Shown here: positions 16,356-58,800 of the stretch, one piece after another
Position numbering within the stretch: position 1 is the stretch's first letter
Layout of the letters: every line of letters starts with the position of its first letter
DNA from: Antedon mediterranea
Lineage: Eukaryota; Animalia; Echinodermata
DNA: 64,000 nt
Assembly: GCF_964355755.1 (NCBI RefSeq)
Contig: NC_092680.1
Span: 13,029,045-13,093,044 of the forward strand
Reading direction: 5' to 3'
Program-made: the position numbers and the translations under genes
The notes under the pieces: generated by a model
The model's database searches: none
Told to the model about the DNA's origin: nothing
Seen by the model: the letters and a program-made list of their open reading frames with translations, nothing else

Positions 16356-17898
16356 GATTGAAGTAACTGTAGCCAATGATGAACTTTATAGAATTCAAGA
16401 ACCACGCCATGTGTATGAACAACAACTTATATCCACACAAGAGTAAGTTATAATGAGTTTTGCTAAAAGTGTATTGTACCTTTCTCTGTTTCTTACCTTA
16501 TGTGAATGCTTATTCTCTTTTTATAATGGTTTTAGGCCCTATTGTTAGAAATTGTCAAGAAGCAGATAATGAAGCCACCGACGGATGTGATGTTGATGTA
16601 ACTGACGGAATCCAACTACACCTTGCGTACGAAAAAATTATATCGACTCAAACATAAGTTAATGAACAACTTTCTGGTTTTACCATACGTATATATTTCT
16701 CTCTTGTCTGTATTGTTATTCTTAATGCTTTATTATTTATCTATTTCCATCATGTTATTGTTTAGGAATCGTCAAGAAGAAACGTCTATTAATGGACGTG
16801 ACATGGAAGAACCTCACAGAACACAAGAACCAGGCAATGGGGAACAACAACTATCAAATCAAACGTGAAGTTATTAACTTTTTACTTAACCTTTTCTTTG
16901 TATTAATTTTGTTTCTTTTATTATTCGAGGTTTACTTCTACTATTTTGTTGAATATTTTATATAATTGTTTTGTTTTTTAGGAATCTGGAAACAGATAAT
17001 AATGGAACTGACATAGTACCTTGCATAACTCAAGAACCACATCATGTGTACGAACAGCACATTATATCGACACAAGAGTAAGTTTAACAGGGAAGGTTTT
17101 TCACTCTTCCCTGGTTAAAAGAGTTTTGCTAAAAGTGTATTTTGTATCTTTCTATTTCTTAACTGTGAATGTTTATTCACTTTTTATAATTGCCTTATTA
17201 TTTAGAAATTGTCAACAAGAAGCAGATAATGAAGCCACCGATGGACGTGATATTAAAGTAACTGACGGAATCCAACTACGCCATAAGTACAAACAAATTA
17301 TATTGACTCAAACGTAAGTTAATTAACAACTCGCTGGTTTTAAAATCTTGAAATAATTTCATTTGGATTCTAATATTTAGAAGTCATTTTTTCTTATTTT
17401 GTTGTTGATCCAATGGATCGAATCGAAAGTGGCCTACTAAAGGTGGTACCGTACTTATAACGACGTTTTGCAAATATTACATATTTCTTTCTTTTCTGTA
17501 TTGTAATTTTTATGATTTATCTATTTTCATCACTTTATTGTTTAGAAATCTTCAAGAAGAAACGTCTATTGATGGACGCGACATAGAAGAACCTAACAGA
17601 ACACAAGAACCAGCCAATGGGGAACAACAACAACACAGAACACAAGAACCAGGCAATTGGGAACAACAACTTATATCAAATAAAACGTAAAGTTATTAAC
17701 TTTTTACTTAACTTTATCTTTGTTTCTTTCATTATTCGAAGGTTTACCTCTACTATTTTGTTGAATATTTTATATAATTGTTTTGTTTTTTAGGAATCTG
17801 TAAACAGATAATAAAGTCACTGATGGAACTGACATGGTACCTTGCATAACTCAAGAACTACGTCATGTGTACGAACAACAAATTGTATCGACACAAAA
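16356..17898 (+). other. Tandem array of seven homologous phase-2/phase-2 exons encoding acidic Q/E/T-rich repeats (gene 3' end or pseudogene)
   Basis: Exons 16356-16442, 16549-16653, 16766-16864, 16982-17077, 17206-17313, 17546-17686 and 17794-~17898, each after a T-rich TAG acceptor. Peptides such as QEPRHVYEQQLISTQ, NCQEADNEATDG and QEETSINGRDMEEP. One donor is ATAAGT, and the last exon has an early in-frame TAA. Confidence 0.6.
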
Positions 17899-18570
17899 GT
17901 AAAACCATCAAAACTTATAGAAGTAAGGAATCGTCAATCAATAAGTGAATTTAAGTGAAGTATCCATAACACAAATAACTGTTCAATAATATGGAAGTAA
18001 AATACTAGAACAATTACATTTTAGCTGTATATAAAATTAAATTGGCTTAACGTGACGTACGTGCTTTTTTTTCCGAACATTTGAAAATGAAACCAAGTAA
18101 AACACACATACTACTGTAACATTAGATTTGTGTTTAAACTAGTAGCTTTTATTACAAAAATAATATACGAATACCTGTAGGCCTAGAAACAACATTATAT
18201 TGCGTAGCCATATTATCCTGGAAGGTACAGTCATACGCAATTATACACAGACATGAAAACTAATGAATAAATACAATAATGTTTATTATAATTCAGTATA
18301 ATTAAAGATGTAAAAACTACCATCGAGCTATAAAAAGCCCCATTATTATTTCACATACAATGCATGTATGTGCATTTATGTATGTATTAGCTATTGATGT
18401 ATATATTTACATATTTTTATACATTTGTGTGTGACCTTGATGTACCGGTAATGTACACAAACCAAATCCCTAATGTAAAATTTACATTGGAAAATAAATA
18501 ATAATTCTTGGACTCGGACTCAATTCGTTTAAACAATCTTCAGTGATATTAATATGTTTTATAAAAAAAA

Positions 18571-19140: not shown

Positions 19141-22100
19141 TTAGTCGTCTGGTCCTGCCTATAAAAGAGGAAATAAAAATAGTTTATTTAAGGGGGAAAA
19201 CAGGAACATTGATAATAAGAAATAATATCGAGCTTCTATGATTTATATGTTGTCAGAGAACTTTTGTGTATATATTCGCTATAGGCCTACAAATTGTTAA
19301 TATCAAACTATTATGTTTAATTCATAGATAAATGTGTATAGAAGTGCATTGTGTGTTAATGTGGTTGTATTTACTAAAATGTGACTGGTGCATTTTTCTG
19401 TAAAGCAATAAGGTAATCACCATTTCGTTTGATTAATTGGAATCCATCAGCAAAGCTTACTTATTACAACCATCGAAGATCTGTCACAATCACCACATAC
19501 CAACAATTCACCATCACCATTCTCGGTCGTTACTAGTACTCATCACTCCTGAATGCTACCAAACACCGACTTAACCGTGACCTCCGCAGTCACAGTAAAA
19601 ATCATCACCCTCAACATCCATCGCAGCCATACTTATCACCCTAACCGCCACAACAATCACCATACATTGTCCACACATCATGCATCGAATCACGATCCTA
19701 CCTCTTCTGGTTCCCATTGTCTGGTATTCATAGCTTCATTACTCTGATAAAGAGGATTATCGACGTCACCAACCTCTCCAGCTGATGATGCATGGTTCGA
19801 TTGATTACCGTCATCTTGAGTTCCTGTTTCCTCTGGTTCGTTAGTGCTCTCTGCAGGTTCCTCATAGTCGTGTGCCTCGTCATCGCCCTCTGCCTCGTTA
19901 TCACCTTCTTGCGCGTTATCAGCCTCAGCCGCGTTATCATCTTGATCGACATTATCTTCACCCTCGTAAGCGTCTGCATAATCAATGTCATCTTCTGGGT
20001 CGTCCATTGGCAACAAAATATTTTCATCTGATGGCGACTTTTCGACATCTTCACTTCTACGAAGGTGCATTAAATTTAATTATTTACAAGTGATTTTAGA
20101 CTGTATTATACTATATTATAGTTAGTTTGTGATAAAGTGTATTACAAGATACCATTTGAGAAGGAAGAGAACCAAAAAGAGCCGAAATATCATGTTGACA
20201 ATTATACACGTAAAGCTACATTTACTTAAACGATGATATATTTTCTACATTATTGTAATATAACGATATACTTTTATATTTAAGAAATTGACCTTTGTAT
20301 CGGAATTTAAATAGGTTCACAAACTTGACCCAGAAAGTCCAGAGGAGAGTTTGTCCAGATGTTTTAATGACCATTTAGTTTATAATAGAATCTCTAAAGA
20401 AAACACTTAGCTTAATTTTGTGACTTTTCCCATCGTTAAACCAGGAGTGATTGACACTATTTAAGTACAGATTTGACAGTGTCATCCATCACAGAAATAC
20501 CTTATTATACCGTTAATCATTCTCACTTAAACACCCCTGGATCAACTTAGGACCAATCGTTACCCTCACAGATTACGTAATTGACATATGCTAATGAACT
20601 GAGCCAATATACTCCCAAGTTTCAGAGGAGCCCAGACACACCTCACAGCCACTTCTTCAGAAGAACATCTACACCTCACAGCCACTTCTTCAGAAGCAGA
20701 CCTACACACTTCACACCTCACCGACAGCATCATTGATCGTCCGTTCCTTATCTATACTTATAGTTGTATATTGTACTGAAGTATTATACTGAATAAACAA
20801 TATATGTGTTACGACAGTCAAGCGAGTCAGAGTCCTTCATTAGTACCTCAACAACGCAACATTATATTACATGGTGGAAGACCCGGGCATTGATCCCGGT
20901 ACCTCTCACATAAATAATAATGTAATAAGTATTTTTAAACGTAGCCTTCAGGGCCAAGCTAGACTCTGGATTGAGGGAAAGCAGTTCGATTCACTGGAAT
21001 CCTTAAAAACCCAATTCATCAACAGGTTTAGTAAAAACAAATCAATCTATGCGCACATAAGAGAATACGATTCAATTACATACACCACTGGCGACAACGC
21101 CGAAAAGCACTTAACCAAAATCAAACAAGCCGCAGACAGAATTGGATACGCTGACCAGCAGATAAAGAATAAATTTATTTCGACCCTTCCACCAAAATGT
21201 AGAGCAGCTGTAGCCATGTCCACCCCAATCGATGCCACTATTGAAAATATCGTAAATAGCACACAAAATTACCTTGACCTTTCCGTAGATGATGCCACAC
21301 GGGAAGTTTCATTCAATATCAATAAAGAAACAGATAGGCCTAATAGTCTCGAATCGCTCCAACGTGAGATAAATTCTCTCAAGTTAGACATGGCCACAAC
21401 AAAACGATCCCTTAATGATGATACTCGACGCTCACGTTCCCCCACCCGAAATTATATCCCAAGACGAAACCGAAGCCCAAGCCCATACAAACCCCGATTC
21501 CAGACCCCACCGACCCCAAGATATAGACAACCTCCCCCAACCTGTTATTACTGCGGGAAACCAGGCCACATAGCAAGGCACTGCCGACAACAAAACCGCT
21601 CTTACGGAAACTATCCCCCGCCATACCCATACCAACAGTCAAACAATTACTACCCTAGCCACCAGCAGGATTTTTAAAAAGGGGACTAGATGCCGCCTAT
21701 AATCTGGCCCCCCATACTAAATACGACAATTTTAAGGCAAAATACTTAGGGAATTCAGATAATATTGATTTGTTACTTAACGACAGAAATTACGTTAAAG
21801 GAAATTTACCAGATGGTAGAAATGTTTTAACTTTATTTGACAGTGGTTCAACTAGAACTATAATCTCACAATCGTACGTTAATTCCTCACTTTATTTATC
21901 GCGTTTAAAGCCAGTTAAAGTGAACACAACTAAATTTCGATTAGGTAACGGTGACTTCTTATATGCCAACCACTTAGTGCAATTCGAATTATTTATCCAA
22001 GGACACAAATTTAAAATTTCAGCATTAATCGTTAAAAATTTGACAGGTATTGACCTGATACTTGGAACCGAAACATTGTCTGAACTCGACGGTACTTTAA

Positions 22101-25100
22101 ATTTTAAGGAAAACACCTTTCGCATTAGACCAAAGATTTTTAGCTTTCGTCCAGTACACAAGATTTTTCTTAAACCCGGTGATACTAAAACAGTTAAATT
22201 AAAAGGAAGGGTTCCCGCCTTCGTACGCAATTCCGATGTTGTTCTACATGCAACCACCCATATTTCAAAACTTTGTCCATCAGATATGTTAGTAAAATTA
22301 CATAGAGGAGAAACCAACATTGATATCACTAACAACACAAACAGAAACGTATCTCTAAATACACATCAACCTATCGCGAGCCTTCACTTAACCAACCTTG
22401 TAACAGTTACTAACGACCTACCAATTGATAGAATAAAGTTGACCAATGACAACGCAAACAAGTACCCACATTTAGAACGTACAGACCCATTGCTAACTTT
22501 AACCGAGGAAGAAATAATTAGAAAACAAGTTGATTTAAAAGACAGCGTTTTAACACATAGAGAAAAAGAAGATTTGTATAAAACATTACAACAAAACAGA
22601 AACGCATTTTCACTTTATGGTGAACTATCTAGCTGCCCAAACTTCAAAGCTGACATACACCTCTCTAACGATGAACCATTTTTTATTCGACCATACTTCG
22701 CGACAGACAAAGACAAACATGTTATTGAGGCCGAATTGAACAAATTAGTCAAATTAGGAATCTTAGCAGTAGGACACCAATCGTATACTTCCCCTGTCCT
22801 TCTTGTTTCAAAGAAAAATTCAAAAGATAAAAGAGTTGTCACAGACTTTCGCTATCTAAATTCCAGGATAAAACGTATTAATCACCCATTCCCATTATTA
22901 GCCGAAACTCTGAAAACAATAGGTAACGCTAATGCACAGATTCTTAGCGTAATTGATTTGAAATCAGCGTTCCACTGTGTACCATTAGCCGAACATGCCC
23001 AACAATATACAGGTATAGCTTCATATCATGGTGGAAAACATTATTATTATAAGAGATTAGCACAAGGATTAAACGTTTCGCCAGGTATATTTCAAGCAAA
23101 GATTGACGAAATTTTAAATGAAATCCCAAATTCTAGAGAATTCTGTATCGCCCATCATGATGATATTATTTTATTTAGCCAAGACAAATTTGCTCATAAG
23201 CAGCACCTTGTTTCCGTTTTACAAGCCCTACAATTAAATGGTTTTAGAATTTGTCCAAAGAAATGTAAGTTATTCAAGAATAAAGTGCAATATTTGGGAC
23301 ACACCATCCTGATTAATTCTTCAGGACACGCATGTATCACACCATTAGGCGACAGGTGTGCAGCTATCCGAAATTTGCCAGTCCCACGAACCCATAAAGA
23401 AACTAAACGATTTATTGGTGCAGTAAATTATGTATCCCATTTTTTCCCTCAAATACAATCAATTTTACGTCCGTTACACACACTCGCAAGCAAACGCCGA
23501 AAATTTTGTTGGTCTACTGAACACCAGAAAGCATTTGACGAAATTAAACAATTAATGGTTAAACCACCAACTCTTCAAATGCCTAGAAAAGAAGGTAGAT
23601 TTACGCTATATAGCGACACTTCAAGAACCGCAACAGGTTCATATTTAACACAAACAGTAAACGGTAAAGAACACATAATAGGTTATTATTCCAAAATCTT
23701 ACCACAAGCCTGTCAACGATATAGCGTCACAGAATTAGAGTTATTTGGACTTTACATTAACGTTTCAGCATTTCGACATTTACTAAAGGGTTGCGAATTT
23801 GATGCATTCGTAGACCACTCAGCAATCGTACAAATTTGGAATTCAAAAGATCAGCCATGTACACCCCGTTTACAGAAACTAATATTACGATTGTCCGGAT
23901 ACATTTTCCAAATTGGTTATAAGAAAGGAACTGAATTAGTTTTAGCAGATTTCCTCTCCCGAGCCCCTCGTGATGACGATTCCGAAATTGATCAAGTTGT
24001 ACCCATTGCATTTAATATTACAGAGACCGAATCTCTTAACCCGATTACAAACACATCTACTAGCAGACCAGTAACAAGATCATACGCCAAGAAAATGGGA
24101 ATAAATATACCTGACCTACATAAACCCAAACCAGTACAAACGCCCGTCATTAATCAAAATCCAGTGACAACAAACACGCGACCTACACCTCAACCTACCG
24201 CTACACCACAGATAATCACGAGACAACAAACAAACGCACATCGATCACCGCCTATCATAACGCCACCTATCGTAACACCACCCCCAATACGTAATGTAAA
24301 CATTCGACAACCTCCAGAGGAACGACTAGTAGACAAAAATAAACAAAGCAAAGACACTACACATCGAAACGTACCAGTTGAATTGTATACATCGCCCAAA
24401 CCACTAGTACCAAACATAACTGAATTTAAGTCAGCACACATCCCAAAACAACAAGATTTAGATAGATTAATGGATGTTATTCAAAGAAAGATAATTAGAG
24501 ATTATAACCTCCCAGTAGATGTTAAACAATTACGTGTTGAACAAGAAACTTCACCATTTTTTAAGCCAGTTTACGATTATTTAGCTCATGATATCCTTCC
24601 AGCTGATAAGAAAGCAGCTCGTGCAGTTCAGAATAAGTCAGAGCAGTACATATTGTGCAACGGTTTACTATTCCGTTTATTTTTCCAAGATAAAGGTGGA
24701 GAATTTGTATTGCAATTAGCTGTTCCTGAAAACTTAGCCGAGACTGTTATTTCTCAGTATCACGACAATTTGTTAAGTAGCCACCAAAAGGTACGATGCG
24801 TACTTACTTACCTTACTATTCGGAAATTATTTTACATGCCTCTTATGTTCGAGAAAGTCAACAATTATACCCAAGCGTGTCTTAGATGTCAACAATTTTG
24901 TCCCAAAACCGATAAATTGCGTCCTTTACACGATCGAGTACCAGCAACTTACCGTCCCTTTCATACACTCAGTCTAGATTTTAAGAGTATGCCAACATCA
25001 CCTTCAGGTTTTAAACATATTATGGTAGTATGTGATGAGATAACTAGATTTTTGATTTGTGTACCTTTGAAATCCATTGATGCCGAAACAATTTGTGAAG

Positions 25101-28100
25101 CACTAATTCAAAAGGTCATCAGTATTTTTGGACCCCCATCTCGTCTTATTTCAGATGCAGCAACCTCCCTTACAGGAAAATTATTAACACTATTATGTAA
25201 CACCCTTAATATTGATAGGAAAATCATCAGCGTCCACAATCACGGTAGTTTTCAAGTTGAACGTCATATCCGCACCGTATCGGACCTGTTAAAGGTCAAC
25301 CTTAACCAATTCGGAACAGATTGGGTTAGATTTGTATCAACAACATGTTATGCTTATAACTCGTTTTCATCCCCACATCTAGGAAACCACTCCCCTTACG
25401 AATTAGTTTTTGGCCGCCAACCTCCAAGTTTGACCTCATTAGCATTTAACCCTATTTCAGGATTGTCTCATTCCTATGAAGAATACTTTGAACATCTCAA
25501 GAAGAAATTTCAAAACATTTCACAGACAATGCTACAATTACAGCGAACACAACAAAACGTCCAAAACTCAAAGATTTCCCAACGCTTACAAAAAAGTCCA
25601 ATTTACTCAGTAGGACAACTCGTATATTTATACAAGACAACATCATCATCACTAACGGCAAATTCAAAGAAAATCGCCGCAGAATGGGTCGGACCATTAG
25701 TGATTCATGAAGTACTAGACAGAACACACTACATCCTAGCGACGATTAAAGGAGAAATACTTCGCGACGTATTCAATTATAACAGACTGAAACCCTGTTT
25801 TATGAGAACACCCAAAGAACGCAAAAATTTTACACATCTCCAAAAACTTAAACAATTGTTGAATGAACCCACCGATGATAATAACGAGAAAATCCAAAAC
25901 ACCATTAATGTAGTAAATGACGAAATCAATGTTGAATTTGTAGACGAACATGATAGGACACCAGCCCAATTGCAATCAGATACCCTTACAAATCCAACTA
26001 AGATAGAACCCCTTAACTTGCAACCTTACATTGACTGTGTAGAGAATAACATGGGATTAGCAGCCCCATTCCAAATGAAAGAAGAACAAATCAAGGAACA
26101 AACTAATCTAATTATGACAGCACCTAATGATTCAATTATGACATTAAACCGAGGTAGATTTAAAGCAGGACATTTCCAAGTTTTAGTTTCATATTCTAAA
26201 CCGACTTCAGCTAAACGCAACACCGATAAAACAAAACACGAATCTAATGATCGCAAATTTTGGTGGAATATTGACAGATATAACGATACAGATAAATTGA
26301 TTAAAGAGATCATTAATGATAAACAGATACCGATAAGTGGATCGCCAAAACGATTCATAAAACGTTTGTATAATGCAACAAGTTACTGATTTAATTTTTT
26401 TTGCAAGATTATTTTTAAATTACGACATTTGCTAAATTATTGATAGCATAGTCTACGTATTTGATGAGATTTGTTTAGTAATGATGTGATTTCAGTTAAA
26501 AGAGAATTGAATTTATGTTTAAGTATTGATTTTGTAACGAGTTTTTTGATAAAGATTAATTTTGAATTTTAATGATCGATATATTGAGATATTGAAAAGA
26601 ACGACAATCATTTTGTAACAAATATTTTGTTTAACCTTTGAGTCGTTAATCTCAAGCATTAATTAATCGATATACAAGAACAGGAGATTTTCTTAGTACT
26701 TTTAATTGTAATTTTTTTTGACATTGAGTACAAAAATCGAATTTGTCGATTGATTGAAATCATAATTACCTGTGAATATAAATGCTTAAATCGATAAAGT
26801 TGTGATGATAACGATATATTGTGGATAAGTTTGTGTCAACGGGACACACACATTTGTTTCTTTTAAAGTTTTAAGTGATTAAGTTTGATATTTTGATTTT
26901 AGGCTAATCAGCCACAGTTTTCTTGAGTTTTATGTTTTGATTTGATGATTTATGTTTGAAGGCCATTAGAACGCGATGAGTTGTCGCACGATTTGATGTA
27001 TGTTCAATGTAACATACTATTTTTAAGTTTTGTATTTTTAGTTTCAACTGATTTATTTTTAATTTACGCGAATTTTATACCAAATTCATTTTTATTAAGA
27101 GAGAGAAGAGAGAGAGTGAAAGTGATAAGGTTACACTTCAGAGTCAATGGTTTTGGCTAACTCAATTTTTGCTTATATGTATAATAATGTTTTTTTCTTT
27201 TATATAACTTTAATTTTGCATGCCACTATTATAACCATTTTTATATTTTCAATAGATTAGAAAAAAAAAGGGAAACAGAGGGATGTAATATAACGATATA
27301 CTTTTATATTTAAGAAATTGACCTTTGTATCGGAATTTAAATAGGTTCACAAACTTGACCCAGAAAGTCCAGAGGAGAGTTTGTCCAGATATTTTAATGA
27401 CCATTTAGTTTATAATAGAATCTCTAAAGAAAACACTTAGCTTAATTTTGTGACTTTTCCCATCGTTAAACCAGGAGTGATTGACACTATTTAAGTACAG
27501 ATTTGACAGTGTCATCCATCACAGAAATACCTTATTATACCGTTAATCATTCTCACTTAAACACCCCTGGATCAACTTAGGACCAATCGTTACCCTCACA
27601 GATTACGTAATTGACATATGCTAATGAACTGAGCCAATATACTCCCAAGTTTCAGAGGAGCCCAGACACACCTCACAGCCACTTCTTCAGAAGAACATCT
27701 ACACCTCACAGCCACTTCTTCAGAAGCAGACCTACACACTTCACACCTCACCGACAGCATCATTGATCGTCCGTTCCTTATCTATACTTATAGTTGTATA
27801 TTGTACTGAAGTATTATACTGAATAAACAATATATGTGTTACGACAGTCAAGCGAGTCAGAGTCCTTCATTAGTACCTCAACAACGCAACATTATATTAC
27901 ATTATGTATGAGAGAGACAGCTTGTATTTTGTTCATTGTAGTGTAGGCCACTACTCATATTTTTACTCTACGCACTCCACGTATCAAACTGACCAAAATT
28001 GGGGCGGGCGGATATCTTTATTAGTTTAACAATAACTTTTCGTAGGTAAGCGATGCAAAAAACATAAAATATTCATTAGTCATATTCTTCTAGCTTAGTG

Positions 28101-31100
28101 AATATCATTAGTGAGACAGGAGGGTGGTGTGGATGCAACTTGTGCTAAATTATGTTACTATTAGTACAATGTTATCATACATACTACCGCCAGGTTTACT
28201 CCTTTCCAAATCAATTGGTAAATATTTTCCAAAAATAAATGAAAATATAACAATATCATAACGAAACGTACATTAACGCAAGGCTCATACAACAATCTGA
28301 TTTGCTTCGTATGAGACACGTTAAGAGTGCAGTTATGACCGTGCTCAAATTAATACATTGTAAAACACACATTACTAAAAAACGAACGTCTTACCCTGAC
28401 AATCGGTCCGGCTTTGAACACATAATTGCGAAGTAGACGATGATTAAACAGAATCCCAGACAGGCGACGATTGTTGTAACTGAGGGTTTTTAAAAGTGCA
28501 TGGTTTAATTCATTTCAATTTTATTTTCATAAGATACATCATTGTGTAATAACATGTGAGTTGTGTTTATAAGTAGAATATACTTATGCTGGAGAAACTT
28601 AAATAAGCCCAGAGGCTAGTTCCACCAGATAAAAATAGTTCAACAAGTAAATATAATAAATGTTTTAAAAGTAGTCAATAAATAATAAAACATACAATAT
28701 GATATCAAATAAATAGGCAGTAAAGAAGCAGTACAAACAAAGCGTAATTTTGTTTTACCCAATAGATCGAGATCGTGTTAGGTAGGTCTATATGCGATCA
28801 AACACTAGGTTGATGGGAATGTGGTGAGCAAACTATCGAATAATGCAATTGCTCAAAGTGGTCTTAGCATTTTTAAAACTGAAAGAATCTATAGTACTGG
28901 TAGGCTTATAATATTATTATCAAAGAAATAATTGTGATCTAATATGTAATCATACATTGGTAAAACTGAAAAATGAAATACTTACAGATGACAATGTAAG
29001 TCGTGTTGTGAGACTCTTCTAGAAAATCAAAATAAACCAAGTATTGTTAGATCTAAAATTGTAACATTTCTAATTTGGTAATACAGCATCCGATGTATAT
29101 CACATGTTGTAAGCTTAGTTTACGGGTTAGGTTCATGATCTATGATACTAGGCGATACATCTGAAACAAGGGGGTTTCTTTTGGTACTGGATAAATCTAG
29201 ATACATTACTGAGGATCTGGTGAGTTATTCTAACAAGTCAACTGGAAGTAAGGTTTTAAAACACCAAGACAATTAATTTGTAATATTACCTTTACAATAT
29301 CCATTATGAACTAGATCTCCATCAACGCACGTGACGTTTACGTAATCATGATCATCGTTATTATCATCGTCATCTTCATCTGATTCGTCATAGAATTTTG
29401 CTCGGAATCCATCATAGCAAACAAGTTTAGTGGACTGGCTCTCTAGTAGACTGGACTCAGAGTATGAGCCGCCTTTTGGATTATCTGGTAAAGTACAGAT
29501 TCTGGCAGCTAAAACAGAAAAGTAGTACTTATTAGTAAATAAGTACATTTTTTAGTTTAACTGGGTTGGTTGTAAAGTATACTTTGGAACTTGTAGAAAT
29601 AAAAAGAATTACGGTATAAGTTGAATAAGTACATTTTAGAGCTTATATCAACACACTTATGTACGGTAGTTATAGTTTAGTACATTATATATCTTGGGTT
29701 ACAATTGCAGAGGTTTAGACAAATATTTCTAGAAGATTTGGAAACTCTAAGGTAACCTGTTATGCAACATAAAAAGTATAACATTTATACTGCATAATTT
29801 AAAAAAAACTATTCAAAAAGGAGAGGTAGAGAGGTAAGAAAGGTAAAAGGTAGAATAAATGCTTTAGAAACATGCTTACATCGAAATAGAAACATACCAA
29901 ATAGTGTAGTTCCCAGTTAACTACAAACAATCAAATACACGTCATCATGTTTCCAACATACACGTGTGTGTTTTATTGTATGCGTAATGTTTTGAGCTAA
30001 AGTATAGTTGGTTAGTGGACATTTATATTTATGTATTGTGGAAATTTCTATCAATTTATAAAGCATCAATTTTACATCAGGTGTTGCATACAAATAAGGT
30101 AATGTTTAGGCCTAAAGTTTATGTACATCTTTTTGTTGTGTTAACATGAATAAATACTATAAATTTGATATACTAACTTCGCATTGTCAATTTGAACGGA
30201 TACTCTCTTTCAACATTCACAGAACTATCTGGTAAATCCAAGGTTTCGCCGATTTGTAAATCATTGAAATTTGAGTAATCAATGTCATATACAGTAAAAT
30301 TCATAACCTGGTTATGGCCGTCAGAATACGAAAATGACCCAGATGTAAACGCAAAGGCTACCCAATTACCAGCATAGGCTACTATAGATGGTGATTCAGC
30401 GGTTAAGCTCTTGTCGACTTCTTGGTTTGGTGAATCAGTGGTAATGTCCACTTTGCTGATAACTTTAAAGTCATTTTGTGACTGACTGATGACAAGCAAA
30501 GTATACGTTGTCGCTTTACTTGCATAAAGGGAGATATCAGTAATAACTGTATCGCATTCAAATGGTTTGTCATAGGGTAAAATCAATTGGTCTATTATTT
30601 CTGTATTCAATTGGTTTGATATCGACCTGGAGCCAAATAATACGGGGCATTCCGGCTCTGAAAACAAGATCATTGTATATATGAATGCTTTTACTGAAGT
30701 GCAACTGTACCATGAATACAATAATACATTTACACTGGGTAATTATACTTCTAAAAAAACTACTTATAAAAGGTGATCGAAAGTTTGATTCAAATAGAAA
30801 GATCAAAGATTGAATGTAACCATTATTTTACTATGAGTATATCGGAAACAGATGTGAAAAAGACGTATAAAAAAACAGAATTAACGAACGTTTTAATTTT
30901 ATCCAATGTATTTATCAGATTAAAGCTACGTAAGTAAAATAGCTGGTTTAGTGTTTAAAACAGAATACTTTACACTAATGTATTCCAGATTATGTGCAAA
31001 ACGTACGTGTGTGATCGGAAGATATAACGTTGTCCGAAGTCTTCTTCGGCAACATGATTCGGCTATAGTCCAGATCCCTATGTCGTGTGCAGATCATGGG

Positions 31101-34100
31101 GAAAGTGTAAACATTGTGTTTTATGAATATTTGAATCATGCTGGTTATAAAAACCCATGTTTTCAAATTTATAAAATTCATCTTTGACCTCTGACCTCAA
31201 TTTGAATGTTTTGACCCATTGAAAACAAAATGGTCATATCTTTGCAACGCTTAGATTAAATGAAAAAAAATTTTAGTTTCAAATTATTTGGGAGATGCAT
31301 ATTAATATTCGTTCTAATGAAAAAGTTTGTCCAAAAATGGCTGGAAGTATGATTTTTGGCATACTTGACCTTTGACCAACATATCATATAACTCCGTAAC
31401 TTGGACAAACTTTAAATAGGGCTCAAATTAATCTGAAGGTATATGTTTCTATTCAGTCTAATAAGAACTTTTTCAAGAAAATGACCCGAAATATTTTCAT
31501 TGACCTTTGACCTGTACTGGTAGTACACATTTCTATAATCTCAAAAACTATTGGCCGTAAAATGGTTGTTTTTGTGAAATGGTTCGAAAAATACATTTAT
31601 ATGTTTTGTGCTAAAAATCCATCTTTTTGGTCCAGTACAAACAATCTTGTACAGCCATTCTTACACAAACAGCATATTTTATTGGAAAGATAATCATAAT
31701 ATCTATCCAATAAAATATGAATTTTGTGTATTAATATCTGCTAGATTGCTTTTATTAAACCAAAAAGATGGACTTTTAGCTCAAAATTAAAATATTTTTT
31801 TGGTGTGTATCATGTAATAACCTCAACAAAAATATCAAGCTATCGGAATATTTTTCTCAATTTTTGTCAGAAACTGACCTAGTACGTTATAAAAGTGGTA
31901 TGTAAATTACAGGTTACTGTAAAAAGTTCTTATTAGACTGAATAGAAACATATACCTTCAGATTAATTTGAGCCCTATTTAAAGTTTGTCCAACTATTAG
32001 TTACGGAGTTATATGATATGTAGGTCAAAGGTCAAATATGCCAAAAATCATACTTCCAGCCATTTTTGGACAAACTTTTCCATTAGAACGAATATTAATA
32101 TGCATCTCCCAAATAATTTGACACTAAAATTATTTCATTTAATCTAAGCGTTGCAAAGATAGGACCATTTTGTTTTCAATGGGTCAAAACATTCAAATTG
32201 AGGTCAGAGGTCAAAGATGAATTTTAGAAATTTGACATGGGTTTTTATAAATAGCATGATTCAAATATTCATAAAACACAATGTTTACACTTTCCCCATG
32301 ATCTGCACACGAAGGCCCTTTTTTTGACATAGGGATCTGGACTACTAGTGTAAACTACAAAAGCATAGTATTAGGTTTAGTGCAGTAATTCTTTCAACAA
32401 TTGCAATATAAAGTGATTTGGTATACTAAATTAGGCCTAAAGTCACCAAACATTCAAATAACAAGACAAAACCACAGAAGATATTAAATACGACTAATAC
32501 TATGGTACCGGTATGACACGTTACCTGTAGTCATCACTGTGGCGTCATCTGGTACTGGAGTCGTGTTCTTTGTCTCAGCCTCTGTCGTTCGATCAGTAGT
32601 GCTGGTGACTGCAGATGCTGTAGTGCTTCTGGTTAATCCATCATTTTCAAGTGTTGTTTTACTTTCTGGATCTTCTGTTATTGTTTTGGAATCATCCTGC
32701 GCAGTCGTGACGACATCTTGCGGAGTCGTGACGACACCTTGCGCAGTCGTGACGACACCTTGCGTGGCTGTTACGACATCGCTTGCAGTCGTCATTGATT
32801 TCACGGTAGTGACCTTCTTGGTTGTAATAGCTTCAATGGTTGTAGGAGGATCAGATGTTGTTGCTAGAAAAAAATATCAACTAAAGTCAGTCTTGTTTAT
32901 ATGTATAATACTGACGTATAGATCATACATTGTAACAGATGCCTGCATAATACCAGCTTAGAATTGATAATAATAGTGTATTTCCATTCTCTTAGAAAAG
33001 GTAGGCATAATTCATGAAATTATATCGATGATTTCAATCGGGTCATAGCAAATCTACGTAAATAACTATATAATATTATCACTTATCAACACAGAAATAT
33101 ATTTTTTCGTAGAAACCTAACATGTACCAAGTACCAATGGTCATACAGGCGAGGCACATACTTACCAGAATACTCGAGAATAAATCCGAAGTTTCCAATA
33201 GAATCTTTGTCTGTGGTAAACCGTATCGTTACAGTTTGTGTTGTATCCGATGTCCACATGAAACTCGATTGGAAACTATCGTACTCGATCGGATCACCGA
33301 TTCCATCCGAAACGGTCAACAAATCGTTGTTCTTCACCAAAAACATTATCGCATTTAATGTCACTACGCTATGCTCTGTATACGATAATGTCCATGTCAC
33401 GTCAAGGTTTGCTTCGTATTTGCCAAAAAAGTTTGGCGAGTAGATAAAGTCATTGTTATCATCAGTGTATGTTGTGCCTGACTCACCTAAAGACACTGTG
33501 GTGATTAGAAATAAATCGTCATTAATATATCAAGCTAATATGCAATAAATAAGAATAGATAAGGAAGTCTATAACCTATTCTATAACTCAATTTCATGCT
33601 AAAAAGTATAGTAGAACTTATGAATTTCTCCTCATATACTAAATATTATAGTAATGTTCGACTTCACGATAGGCACTGCCATCGAGCTTTTGTGCCTGCT
33701 AGGCTAAGTTTGCATGGCGAATATACTTTTTTTTCTTACAAAATTTTTCGACTAAACAAATATTTATTATGTCTTTATTATCATATTATGAATGTGATTA
33801 TTGCGTCATATTGTTCTTACCTGGATAAATACTAAAGTGATTGACACCACCACATGCCGCTCGATCATCGTCAATGCAAGCAGTATTACACATTCCGTTC
33901 GATGCTGCCGTCAATGATGTATATTCTCCAGAGAAACAAAAGCATCTATTTTGATCACCCTTAACCCCAAGCGCTGCGTACGTTGAATACGCCCTACAGA
34001 CATCTAAACACTCGTAGATACTAGCAGACGCAGTACTTATTCGTTGTAAGTCTGGCGGGTACTGGCTTTCTGGGATATCATAGCAACCAAGATAGGCGGG

Positions 34101-55800: not shown

Positions 55801-58800
55801 AATATATGTGCGATGTGGTTTAAACAGCTAGGTTTCATGGTTTGAAAATAAAATAATAAAAAAAAAATTGTTTAATTTAATAATGTTTAATACAAATTTG
55901 TATTATTTACTATTAATGATTGAAAAAAGTACCCTGACCCTCGTAACTGTTGAGTTAATGTCTTTTATTCCATAGTGTGTTTTTGGTGCATTATGAAAAT
56001 ACACAAGTGCATACTGTACATCTTTCAACGAGAAAACAAGTTGTGTTTTTCTCTTTTCGTGTGAACACACCTCTTGAGTTCTGTCAGCGTTGATAAAGGC
56101 GGTTGCGAGAAATCTCAATAGTAACCATATTATACCTTATCTCACCCATATTACAGTACCATGGTTTATGTGCGAGGTCTAATTTTTTATGTCGTAAATT
56201 TTATAAATGTTCTGATTTTGTTAAAGTTTATTTGTTCAAGTCTTATCAGTTTCTATTCTATTTCTATTATAGTATTTGTTGGTTCAATTACAATAAGCCT
56301 TCATTCTTTAAAAGTTTGTTACAAAAATTATTTGCGTATGTTGCTAAGTTGGAGTAAATTCTGGATCTAGTAGCTACTGTACAATCGCCATCATATAGGC
56401 TATTTAATACAGGTTGCGCTCCCATAAGCATAGCTTGTTGCAATTCAGTTTTTAAGTGAGCAATCTTAGTGATGCTGTCGATGTCTAGTGCGTCCAGTTG
56501 GGTTTTGAAATTAGTTGGTGCACATCTAGTTGAGTCAGGTAGAGCGTTCCATTCTGGTATGGTCTGCCAAATAAGCAGTTGCGGACTCTCCAGAAGGTGC
56601 AAAATTGGGCAGCTCGCTTGGTGATGTGTGCCAAGAAGTATGATCACGTCACACCATTGTTCAAAGAGTTACATTGGCTACCCATGGAGTCACGTGTTAA
56701 ATTTAAGATCCTGCTGCTGGTGTTCCGATGCCTAAATAGTTGTGCTCCAAAATATCTCTCAGAATTGTTGACAGTCAAGAAGGGAAAGCGAGAACTAAGA
56801 TCTAGTCATCAGGTGCTACTGGACATTCCAAGGAGCAAACATAGTTGGGGAGATCGGACTTTCAGTGTTGCTGGACCTAGGCTCTGGAACCACCTACCCT
56901 TGAACATTAAACACACATCATTATTGAGTCACTTTAAGTCACTACTCAAAACTCACCTTTTCTGATTTTTTAACAGTGCCATGAGCAATGAATGTTGGAA
57001 TGGCGCTATATAAATCGAACGATTGATTGATTGATGGTCCATCATTAATACTTCTGAAATGTTTCTAGTTTTAATTAATGTAGTCGTAAGTCTATTTATA
57101 GTTATATAGTTTTATTACATATTATTATATTATATTGATTTATGCTTTTTACTGATTTTAATTTCCAAATTGTTTGCCAGGTAGTCTGGCATTTTACATT
57201 AATCTTTTACTATTTTACGTTTTATACTTTTTATATATTTTTATATGTATTGAATTAGTGAAATAGAAGAATATATATATATATATCTATATAAACAAAT
57301 CAGGTAAAGAACATTAATTCTAAACCGCCTGGTGATATACTGAAATTTAATTAATTAATTTGAAACGATAAAGATGAGGAAATCTGTGAGTGAGAATGAG
57401 AAAAAGTCGCCCCAACCGAGACTCGAACTCGGACCGCCTGCTTGATATGCAGATGTCCTAACCATTAGACCACTCAGGCTTTCATGGTATTGTTCGAACT
57501 CGATTGGATAGCGACTCTTTATATATATATATATATATAATATTGCCAATATAATATATTTTTAATAGTTTAATCTAGAGGAGTTCTTGGCAGCGTGGCA
57601 ACAGTGTGTGCCTGAAGGCATGAAAACTGATCCAGGTCAACTTAAGGTAACAATATTTACTATATTAAAATTTGTTTTTATTTCATTCTTGTAACATTGT
57701 TAACTGTATTAACTATTCTTGTAACATTGTTACACTGTATTAACTATTCTTGTAACATTGTTACACTGTATTAACTATTCTTGTAACTTTGTTACACTGT
57801 ATTAACTATTCTAACATTGTTACACTGTATTAACTATTCTTGTAACATTGTTACACTGTATCAACTATTCTTGTAACATTGTTACACTGTATTAACTATT
57901 CTAACATTGTTACACTGTATTAACTATTCTTGTAACATTGTTACACTGTATTAACTATTTTTGTAACTTTGTTACACTGTATTAACTATTTTTGTAACAT
58001 TGTTACACTGTATTAACTATTCTTGTAACATTGTTACACTGTATTAACTATTTTTGTAACATTGTTAACTGTATTAACTATGTTTGTAACATTGTTAACT
58101 GTATTAACTATTCTTGTAACATTATTACACTGTATTAACTATTCTTGAAAAATTGTTAACTGTATTAACTATTTTTGTAACATTGTTACATCTATATATA
58201 AATTTACGTAAGGGCAAAAATCGGTAAATCGTGCGTTATTTCTAGAATGTTTACGCGATGGTATATAAAGTTGGTTCGTACTTTCGGTACTAATTTTAAC
58301 CACCTGATGTAACCCTGTTTACTAATTAAATTGAGTTCGATAATTAGTTATTGACGATTAAAACGAATTTAGGTTCAAAGATTTGCCCCAAATAGGGGTG
58401 TTTTCCGATCGTGGTATACACTGTCTAATGGATGTCAATTTGAAAAATACCCGCACACAATAATACGAGGACGCTTCGCATTTTCCTATCTCCTCCTACG
58501 ATAATTGTTTTTAATAGCTGAAAACCGGTTGAACAGTTCGAGTACAGCATCATGATGTTGAAGACAGGCCGATTTTCTTTAAAAAATGCTATTTTGATAC
58601 ATGTAATATACGTTTTTACAAATGTATTGATTTGTGATGAATGGAACATTCCAAATTATTTGGTTTAACCATAGAGGTATAGATTTAGATTTATGGGCCC
58701 CCTTGGAGAATAAACATAAATAGTATTGCAATGCTGTACAATACTGTTAAGGTATTGTTAGATTATAAACATATAATATACAAATAAATAAACGTTATTA

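Follow-up and report, generated by a model that had tools for sequence, protein, structure and literature searches.

The LTR retrotransposon at positions 20254-27901 of the window, a 64,000-nt stretch of the genome of Antedon mediterranea, is very probably a single young, defective crinoid Ty3/Gypsy copy, made when the reverse transcriptase (RT) overran its tRNA primer to about position 37 and then jumped into gag. Judging from the sequence, 40 bases complementary to a host tRNA-Ala take the place of the leader and of the first 69 codons of gag. The locus is most likely the scar of a known type of replication error, and no family trait. The element is 7.6 kb long and has the following parts.

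20250-20253 (+): 4-bp target-site duplication (TTAT) on the left side; its right counterpart lies at 27902-27905
20254-20871 (+): 5' LTR, 618 nt, with TG...CA ends and AATAAA at 20792-20797
20804-20893 (+): upstream out-of-frame ORF of 29 codons, with its ATG at 20804, overlapping the junction ATG; effect on translation putative
20871-20873 (+): junction ATG, made of the final LTR base and the first two primer-site bases
20872-20884 (+): 13-nt primer-binding site, common to siblings; complement of tRNA-Ala 76-64
20885-20911 (+): 27 additional bases that continue the complement of tRNA-Ala(AGC) from 63 to 37, with position 58 falling at 20890
20912-20917 (+): filler of 6 nt, all A or T, that separates the tRNA copy from gag
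20918-21677 (+): remainder of gag from sibling residue 70 (rest of the capsid, CCHC knuckle), lacking the N-terminus
21659-26389 (+): stop-free pol frame of 1576 codons (protease-RT-RNase H-integrase), in -1 overlap with gag
27259-27283 (+): polypurine tract
27284-27901 (+): 3' LTR

The paired TG...CA LTRs, the target duplication and the polypurine tract are those of a Ty3/Gypsy element, as is the capsid fold of Gag, which was taken from the predicted structure of a sibling protein (P0001). Pfam recognized a CCHC knuckle in Gag and, in pol, a protease followed by RT, RNase H and finally integrase, and it is this combination that identifies the element as a Ty3/Gypsy LTR retrotransposon. The closest Gag proteins in the protein collection are labelled Antedon mediterranea. 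The two 618-nt LTRs differ by one mismatch, and no second primer-site match or further LTR copy was found inside the window. Both LTRs have a G at the site of position 20627, where all aligned contigs of the public runs X1 and X3 have an A, so that the copy has at least one private change, dating from before or during its last copying. Directly before the gag stop, within the overlap with pol, the sequence G GAT TTT at 21668-21674 is a likely candidate for the -1 frameshift site; a C-terminal DF is also present in several relatives. The RT active-site motif is usually YxDD, and in this pol it reads HHDD (23153-23164, pol residues 499-502). Among the 99 of 101 relatives that could be aligned, IMDD occurs 44 times, HHDD 18, HMDD 10, IHDD 9 and YxDD only twice, which makes the HHDD-type motif a trait of the lineage. 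No report of these motifs was located in the papers searched.

The window contains other features. A fold-back element of about 1.2 kb at 31083-32312, with long inverted arms that are 96-97% complementary, is likely a MITE-type transposon. ARAGORN calls a tRNA-Asp with the unusual anticodon ATC at 57408-57479 on the reverse strand, which may be a pseudogene or the head of a SINE. At 16367-17902, exon- and intron-like blocks are duplicated locally with a spacing of 630-820 nt.

A preliminary description of the locus had placed an antisense half of tRNA-Ala, 40 nt long and running from CCA76 back to about position 37, right after the 5' LTR. This was confirmed: 20872-20911 is the exact complement of tRNA-Ala(AGC) from position 76 to 37, and position 20871, from which the feature had been made to start, is the final base of the LTR. 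The reverse complement numbers as tRNA positions 37-76 over its 40 nt and has, as had also been described, a perfectly paired T-stem (5/5 pairs), a T-loop of the ATC type (ATCAATG) and U70, together with A73 and CCA. We take the T-loop, U70 and the like to be identity features of tRNA-Ala. The suggested alignment to tRNA-Ala genes extended the match far beyond about 18 nt, since contigs carrying host tRNA genes are identical to the element over 20875-20910 in runs X1 and X3 (0 differences), and a tRNA contig of run X8, from a related organism, is identical over 20875-20909 (0 differences). These host gene contigs lack an encoded CCA, and to the left of the match an A-rich run, which is the T-rich trailer of the gene, replaces the TGG. 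Other contigs continue beyond 20911 into the AGC anticodon and the D arm, which sets the end of the element's match at exactly position 37. Going by the letters, an extension of 27 nt past the 13-nt site of the siblings cannot be chance. There is a second host tRNA-Ala gene variant with a different acceptor stem, so that the primer site matches one particular tRNA-Ala sequence. Rfam detected no tRNA at 20872-20911. The complement of the primer tRNA continues in register beyond the normal site, as in a delayed second-strand transfer, and at tRNA positions 37 and 58 it has the unmodified, gene-type A.

The survey of sibling sites covered 77 contig records from four public runs, and its results are among the 26 of 78 pieces listed. 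Among these, the contigs joined to the LTR end their tRNA match at 20884 in four pieces of X1 and four of X3. In X3, these four pieces supply the entire depth over the LTR end, and one of the X1 contigs continues with 24 unrelated bases after 20884. In X8, the match of two LTR contigs reaches 20889, directly ahead of A58, and A-rich sequence follows. By these ends, the family primer-binding site, on the 3' end of tRNA-Ala, is 13 nt long, with 18-nt forms in the related organism that end just before A58. In 4/4 runs aligned at 20918, contigs enter this position from other sequence. No contig of the four runs surveyed for sibling sites covers 20913-20945, and none of the pieces listed is longer than 40 nt; we treat this as a gap in a filtered contig set and do not count it as evidence. 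A further X8 contig has TGG and a 39-nt complement of tRNA-Ala (4 differences) after an unrelated flank, and is possibly another product of overrun.

The Gag proteins of the siblings (the P0001 cluster) comprise four Antedon RefSeq accessions with three distinct sequences of 319-321 residues each. The Gag of the window copy is shared with them from its residue 17 onwards, and has 16 residues upstream of this point versus 69 in 4/4 sibling records; two sibling Gags are identical to it at 250/251 residues after the junction point. More broadly, in 124 of the 137 homologues that cover the shared core, the alignment extends towards the N-terminus at least as far as sibling residue 50. Ten of the 137 have fewer than 35 residues ahead of the junction point, and these short N-termini are likely partial gene calls. 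A peptide of the tRNA type was found in 0 of the 160 proteins compared. The comparison of Gag length with relatives, which had been proposed as a check, showed that the siblings are longer, and they combine a short primer site with the longer Gag. The tRNA insert lies at a deletion junction between intact LTRs, as in delayed second-strand transfer. These siblings, with sites of 13 or 18 nt followed by other sequence, are at odds with a half-tRNA site that is shared by the family, and they contradict the proposal that the family natively uses such a site and reads it as coding sequence.

The consequences for the capsid were assessed with the predicted structure of the sibling Gag P0001 (mean pLDDT 67, pTM 0.33). 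The model resembles the capsids of Arc, Ty3, MLV and PEG10, although no Foldseek match reached an E of 0.001; capsid structures align to it over residues about 20-196, and the best structural match (Z 11.4, rmsd 1.7, 79 aligned) concerns the C-terminal domain. Helices 40-56 and 65-78 of the model fall in the part that is missing from the window Gag. Since sibling residues 1-69 are absent and these helices are placed there, the window Gag is modelled as lacking about half of the N-terminal domain of the capsid, namely its front half. The shortened protein would not be expected to assemble into a normal capsid. The 5' leader is also entirely absent from this copy.

We propose the following route. 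During plus-strand strong-stop synthesis, the RT would have failed to stop at A58 and copied the tRNA-Ala primer as far as position 37 or 38, at which point m1I37 likely brought it to a halt. The over-long 3' end would no longer pair cleanly at the primer site, and this loss of pairing would lead the strand to re-prime further downstream, at an AT-rich part of gag on the minus strand. The window copy has kept both of its LTRs and its target duplication whole, as this route predicts. Against the route, no clear microhomology was seen at the AT-rich gag junction. That m1I37 caused the stop is plausible. It also counts against the route that the copy, with the gene-type A at 58 and 37, bears no letters that would betray a modified RNA as template; these letters could be accounted for if the primer was hypomodified or if the T at 20911 arose by chance, and this T may be part of the filler and not of the tRNA copy. 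The CCA is not diagnostic of an RNA template either, because the family site already includes it. The short-site, long-Gag siblings thus support the second alternative of the preliminary description, an aberrant strand transfer that deleted the leader and the Gag N-terminus. Its interpretation survives as primer read-through followed by aberrant transfer, and is given up where it invoked a coding half-tRNA site native to the family. We found no report of a tRNA-overrun lesion in Gypsy elements in the literature searched, which consisted mostly of recent, openly accessible papers.

Similar junctions occur in metagenomes. We searched contigs for CA and TGG followed by the complement of a eukaryotic tRNA-Ala down to position 43, a pattern that forced the CA, a minimum length and an A at 58, and that is therefore silent on frequency and on misreading at 58. 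The scan gave 25 loci, of which one (L018) was dropped as a whole tRNA-Phe gene; the 24 retained correspond to 17 distinct junctions, none of them a whole tRNA gene, and the repeated ones are the same locus in each group, with both flanks matching. With one mismatch allowed and scoring no further than position 31, the tRNA copies end at positions 41 (2), 40 (3), 39 (1), 38 (1), 37 (2), 36 (3), 33 (3) and 31 (2), i.e., at 36-41 in 12/17. The base ahead of the forced CA is an A in 14/17 junctions (p 4e-6), as in LTR ends. In four of the 17 (L012, L014, L016 and L022), position 34 reads G, and position 37 reads T or G. These letters fit inosine-34 and (methyl)inosine-37 and point to a mature tRNA as the template of these junctions. 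L023 has gene letters. In L024 (about 1503-1575), the complement breaks off at 39, after which the same tRNA half recurs in sense orientation, with G34 and T37; L024 is thus a fold-back product, and its letters likewise point to a mature tRNA as template.

Three of the 17 junctions were shown to belong to LTR elements. Two of these, L005 and L021, are small but complete, about 1.5 kb and 0.8 kb long, respectively, with paired LTRs, 4-bp duplications and tRNA-Ala sites of 36-37 nt. In L006, the tRNA copy stops at 37, and what follows is the middle of an RT gene in another frame: the antisense-tRNA frame meets a stop after 25 codons and differs from the RT frame. Direct comparison of L006 with the RT of the window copy gave an E of 6e-6. 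Pfam, run on 80 of the 150 ORFs listed around the metagenome loci, found retroelement domains only in L006, and tblastn with the window pol and a sibling Gag gave no match downstream of the 17 junctions. About 150 nt beyond the modification-lettered tRNA-Ala copy of L014 (1503-1892) lies a sugar-transporter coding stretch (PF05631), possibly captured host sequence or merely flank. DNA of relatives, searched through the Gag alignment (metagenome and viral contigs) and the RT region (viral contigs), yielded 0 confirmed loci in each case, and of the four matches of the tRNA pattern in viral contigs, one was a tRNA-Phe gene and the other three were copies of the same sequence, which is not a tRNA. 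It is somewhat probable that overrun of a tRNA-Ala primer is a recurrent route in eukaryotic LTR elements. The 17 junctions suggest that tRNA-Ala scars are common. Such scars may show where the RT stops on modified tRNA and how I34 and m1I37 are read in vivo, which could be of use for organisms without tRNA modification data.

The same junctions bear on the coding claim. The final A of the LTR and the following TG do make an ATG at 20871, as had been described, and the frame was confirmed to run through the tRNA copy into gag, with 268 codons beginning MVEDPGIDPGTSH. Yet any LTR ending in CA gives an ATG automatically when joined to TGG: the same junction ATG arises in 17/17 similar metagenome junctions, and in 17/17 the antisense tRNA-Ala frame is open for 13 codons. 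Since the ATG and the tRNA-derived peptide are present in 17/17 unrelated junctions, they are uninformative here; the ATG and the first 13 codons are what any LTR with a CA end yields when antisense tRNA-Ala follows it. Chance enters only in that the join is in frame with gag, an outcome of about 1 in 3. The absence of a 5' leader that had been described is true of the DNA after the LTR, whereas a transcript initiated within the LTR would include R-U5. Annotators should be cautious with an ORF opening MVE..GIDP.TS directly after an LTR, which is antisense tRNA-Ala and a false N-terminus. A truncated Ty1 Gag, p22, is a precedent for the poisoning of capsids by a shortened Gag. A wider scenario, in which recurrent overrun stalls at about m1I37, writes tRNA modifications into the genome and always gives a start codon with 13 open codons, and in which the present in-frame Gag with half an N-terminal domain is expressed and poisons the capsids of siblings, seems to us quite improbable.

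Three other explanations were weighed against primer overrun. The insert could stem from DNA repair after integration, if a break near the primer site had been mended with a tRNA-Ala gene as template, by way of the 10 bases that the two have in common, and the end then rejoined within gag. Contigs with tRNA-Ala genes are plentiful in the runs, the letters at 37 and 58 are of the gene type, and the 6-nt filler suits end joining. However, a DNA template offers no cause for the stop at 37, the other junctions cluster at 36-41 and four of them bear RNA-modification letters; moreover, LTRs that differ at 1/618 bases leave little time since insertion. We regard repair as improbable. We give still less credit to an inherited long site, and hold it very unlikely that the copy belongs to a subfamily with 40-nt sites copied in trans by intact siblings, or that 3' half-tRNA priming is native and Gag starts inside the site. 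The open pol and nearly identical LTRs would suit such a subfamily, as would L005 and L021, which are complete with their 36-37-nt sites, but every sibling junction seen is short, 4/4 sibling Gag records are long, and the metagenome repeats, matching across both flanks, amount to one locus per group. A chimera of an element copy with a tRNA gene, made during assembly or in the library, has the least in its favour and a nearly negligible probability: the exact window Gag is indeed absent from the protein collection, but the join keeps the register of the family site, takes in the CCA and stops at 37, and 17 similar junctions occur in other data.

Primer overrun has relatives among known systems. 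Pulsinelli and Temin reportedly described in 1991 deletions in spleen necrosis virus vectors that arose from faulty termination in the primer site. By this account, they resemble the window copy in that the deletion starts from the primer site in plus-strand strong-stop synthesis and non-viral sequence is captured, and differ from it in concerning a retrovirus in cell culture. Plus-strand strong-stop synthesis normally halts at m1A58, and without this stop the product cannot pair with the other strand; in tRNA-Lys3, m5Um54 is a second stop after m1A58 (PMC8599865). The X8 siblings, which end at 18 nt, stay within the A58 limit of this model. Unlike tRNA-Lys3 (PMC8599865), the tRNA-Ala has an A at 54, and would thus lack the second stop; m1I37 is the next candidate block after 54. 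In reverse transcription, m1I is reported to be read as T and inosine as G (PMC6874348), and one enzyme read m1I37 with near 100% misincorporation, so that it is not an absolute block (PMC11770116).

Other elements involve longer or partial tRNA sequences. In Drosophila copia and yeast Ty5, priming from a 3' end cut in the anticodon loop is a trait of the family (PMC5371799). They share with the window copy the involvement of a tRNA half, but its match starts at CCA76 and was found in one copy; half-tRNA priming of the copia/Ty5 type, which would begin at an internal 3' end in the anticodon region, was therefore rejected. Ty1 and Ty3 have extended or bipartite (split) primer pairing (PMC5371799), and elements of Candida albicans have long internal tRNA-Arg sites (PMC4139406). 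All have more than 18 nt of tRNA complementarity, as does the window copy. According to the same sources, however, their matches are conserved, split or internal, in elements that are complete, whereas that of the window copy is contiguous from the CCA and marks a deletion. Helenus elements have a tRNA-like sequence within the LTR (PMC10886601), and neither this arrangement nor the internal matches of Candida (PMC4139406) fit the window copy.

In HIV-1, 44 defective proviruses have a copy of tRNA-Lys3 extending 7-54 nt past the site at a deletion junction, with intact LTRs (PMC12657518). As described there, this delayed, or aberrant, second-strand transfer and the window copy have in common an intact LTR, a normal primer site continued by the complement of the primer tRNA, and a jump downstream that deletes the intervening sequence. 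Unlike these proviruses (PMC12657518), the window copy is an echinoderm Gypsy element with tRNA-Ala as primer, a family site of 13 nt and a join in frame with gag. It provides a clean genomic example, outside the retroviruses, of plus-strand synthesis that overran its primer.
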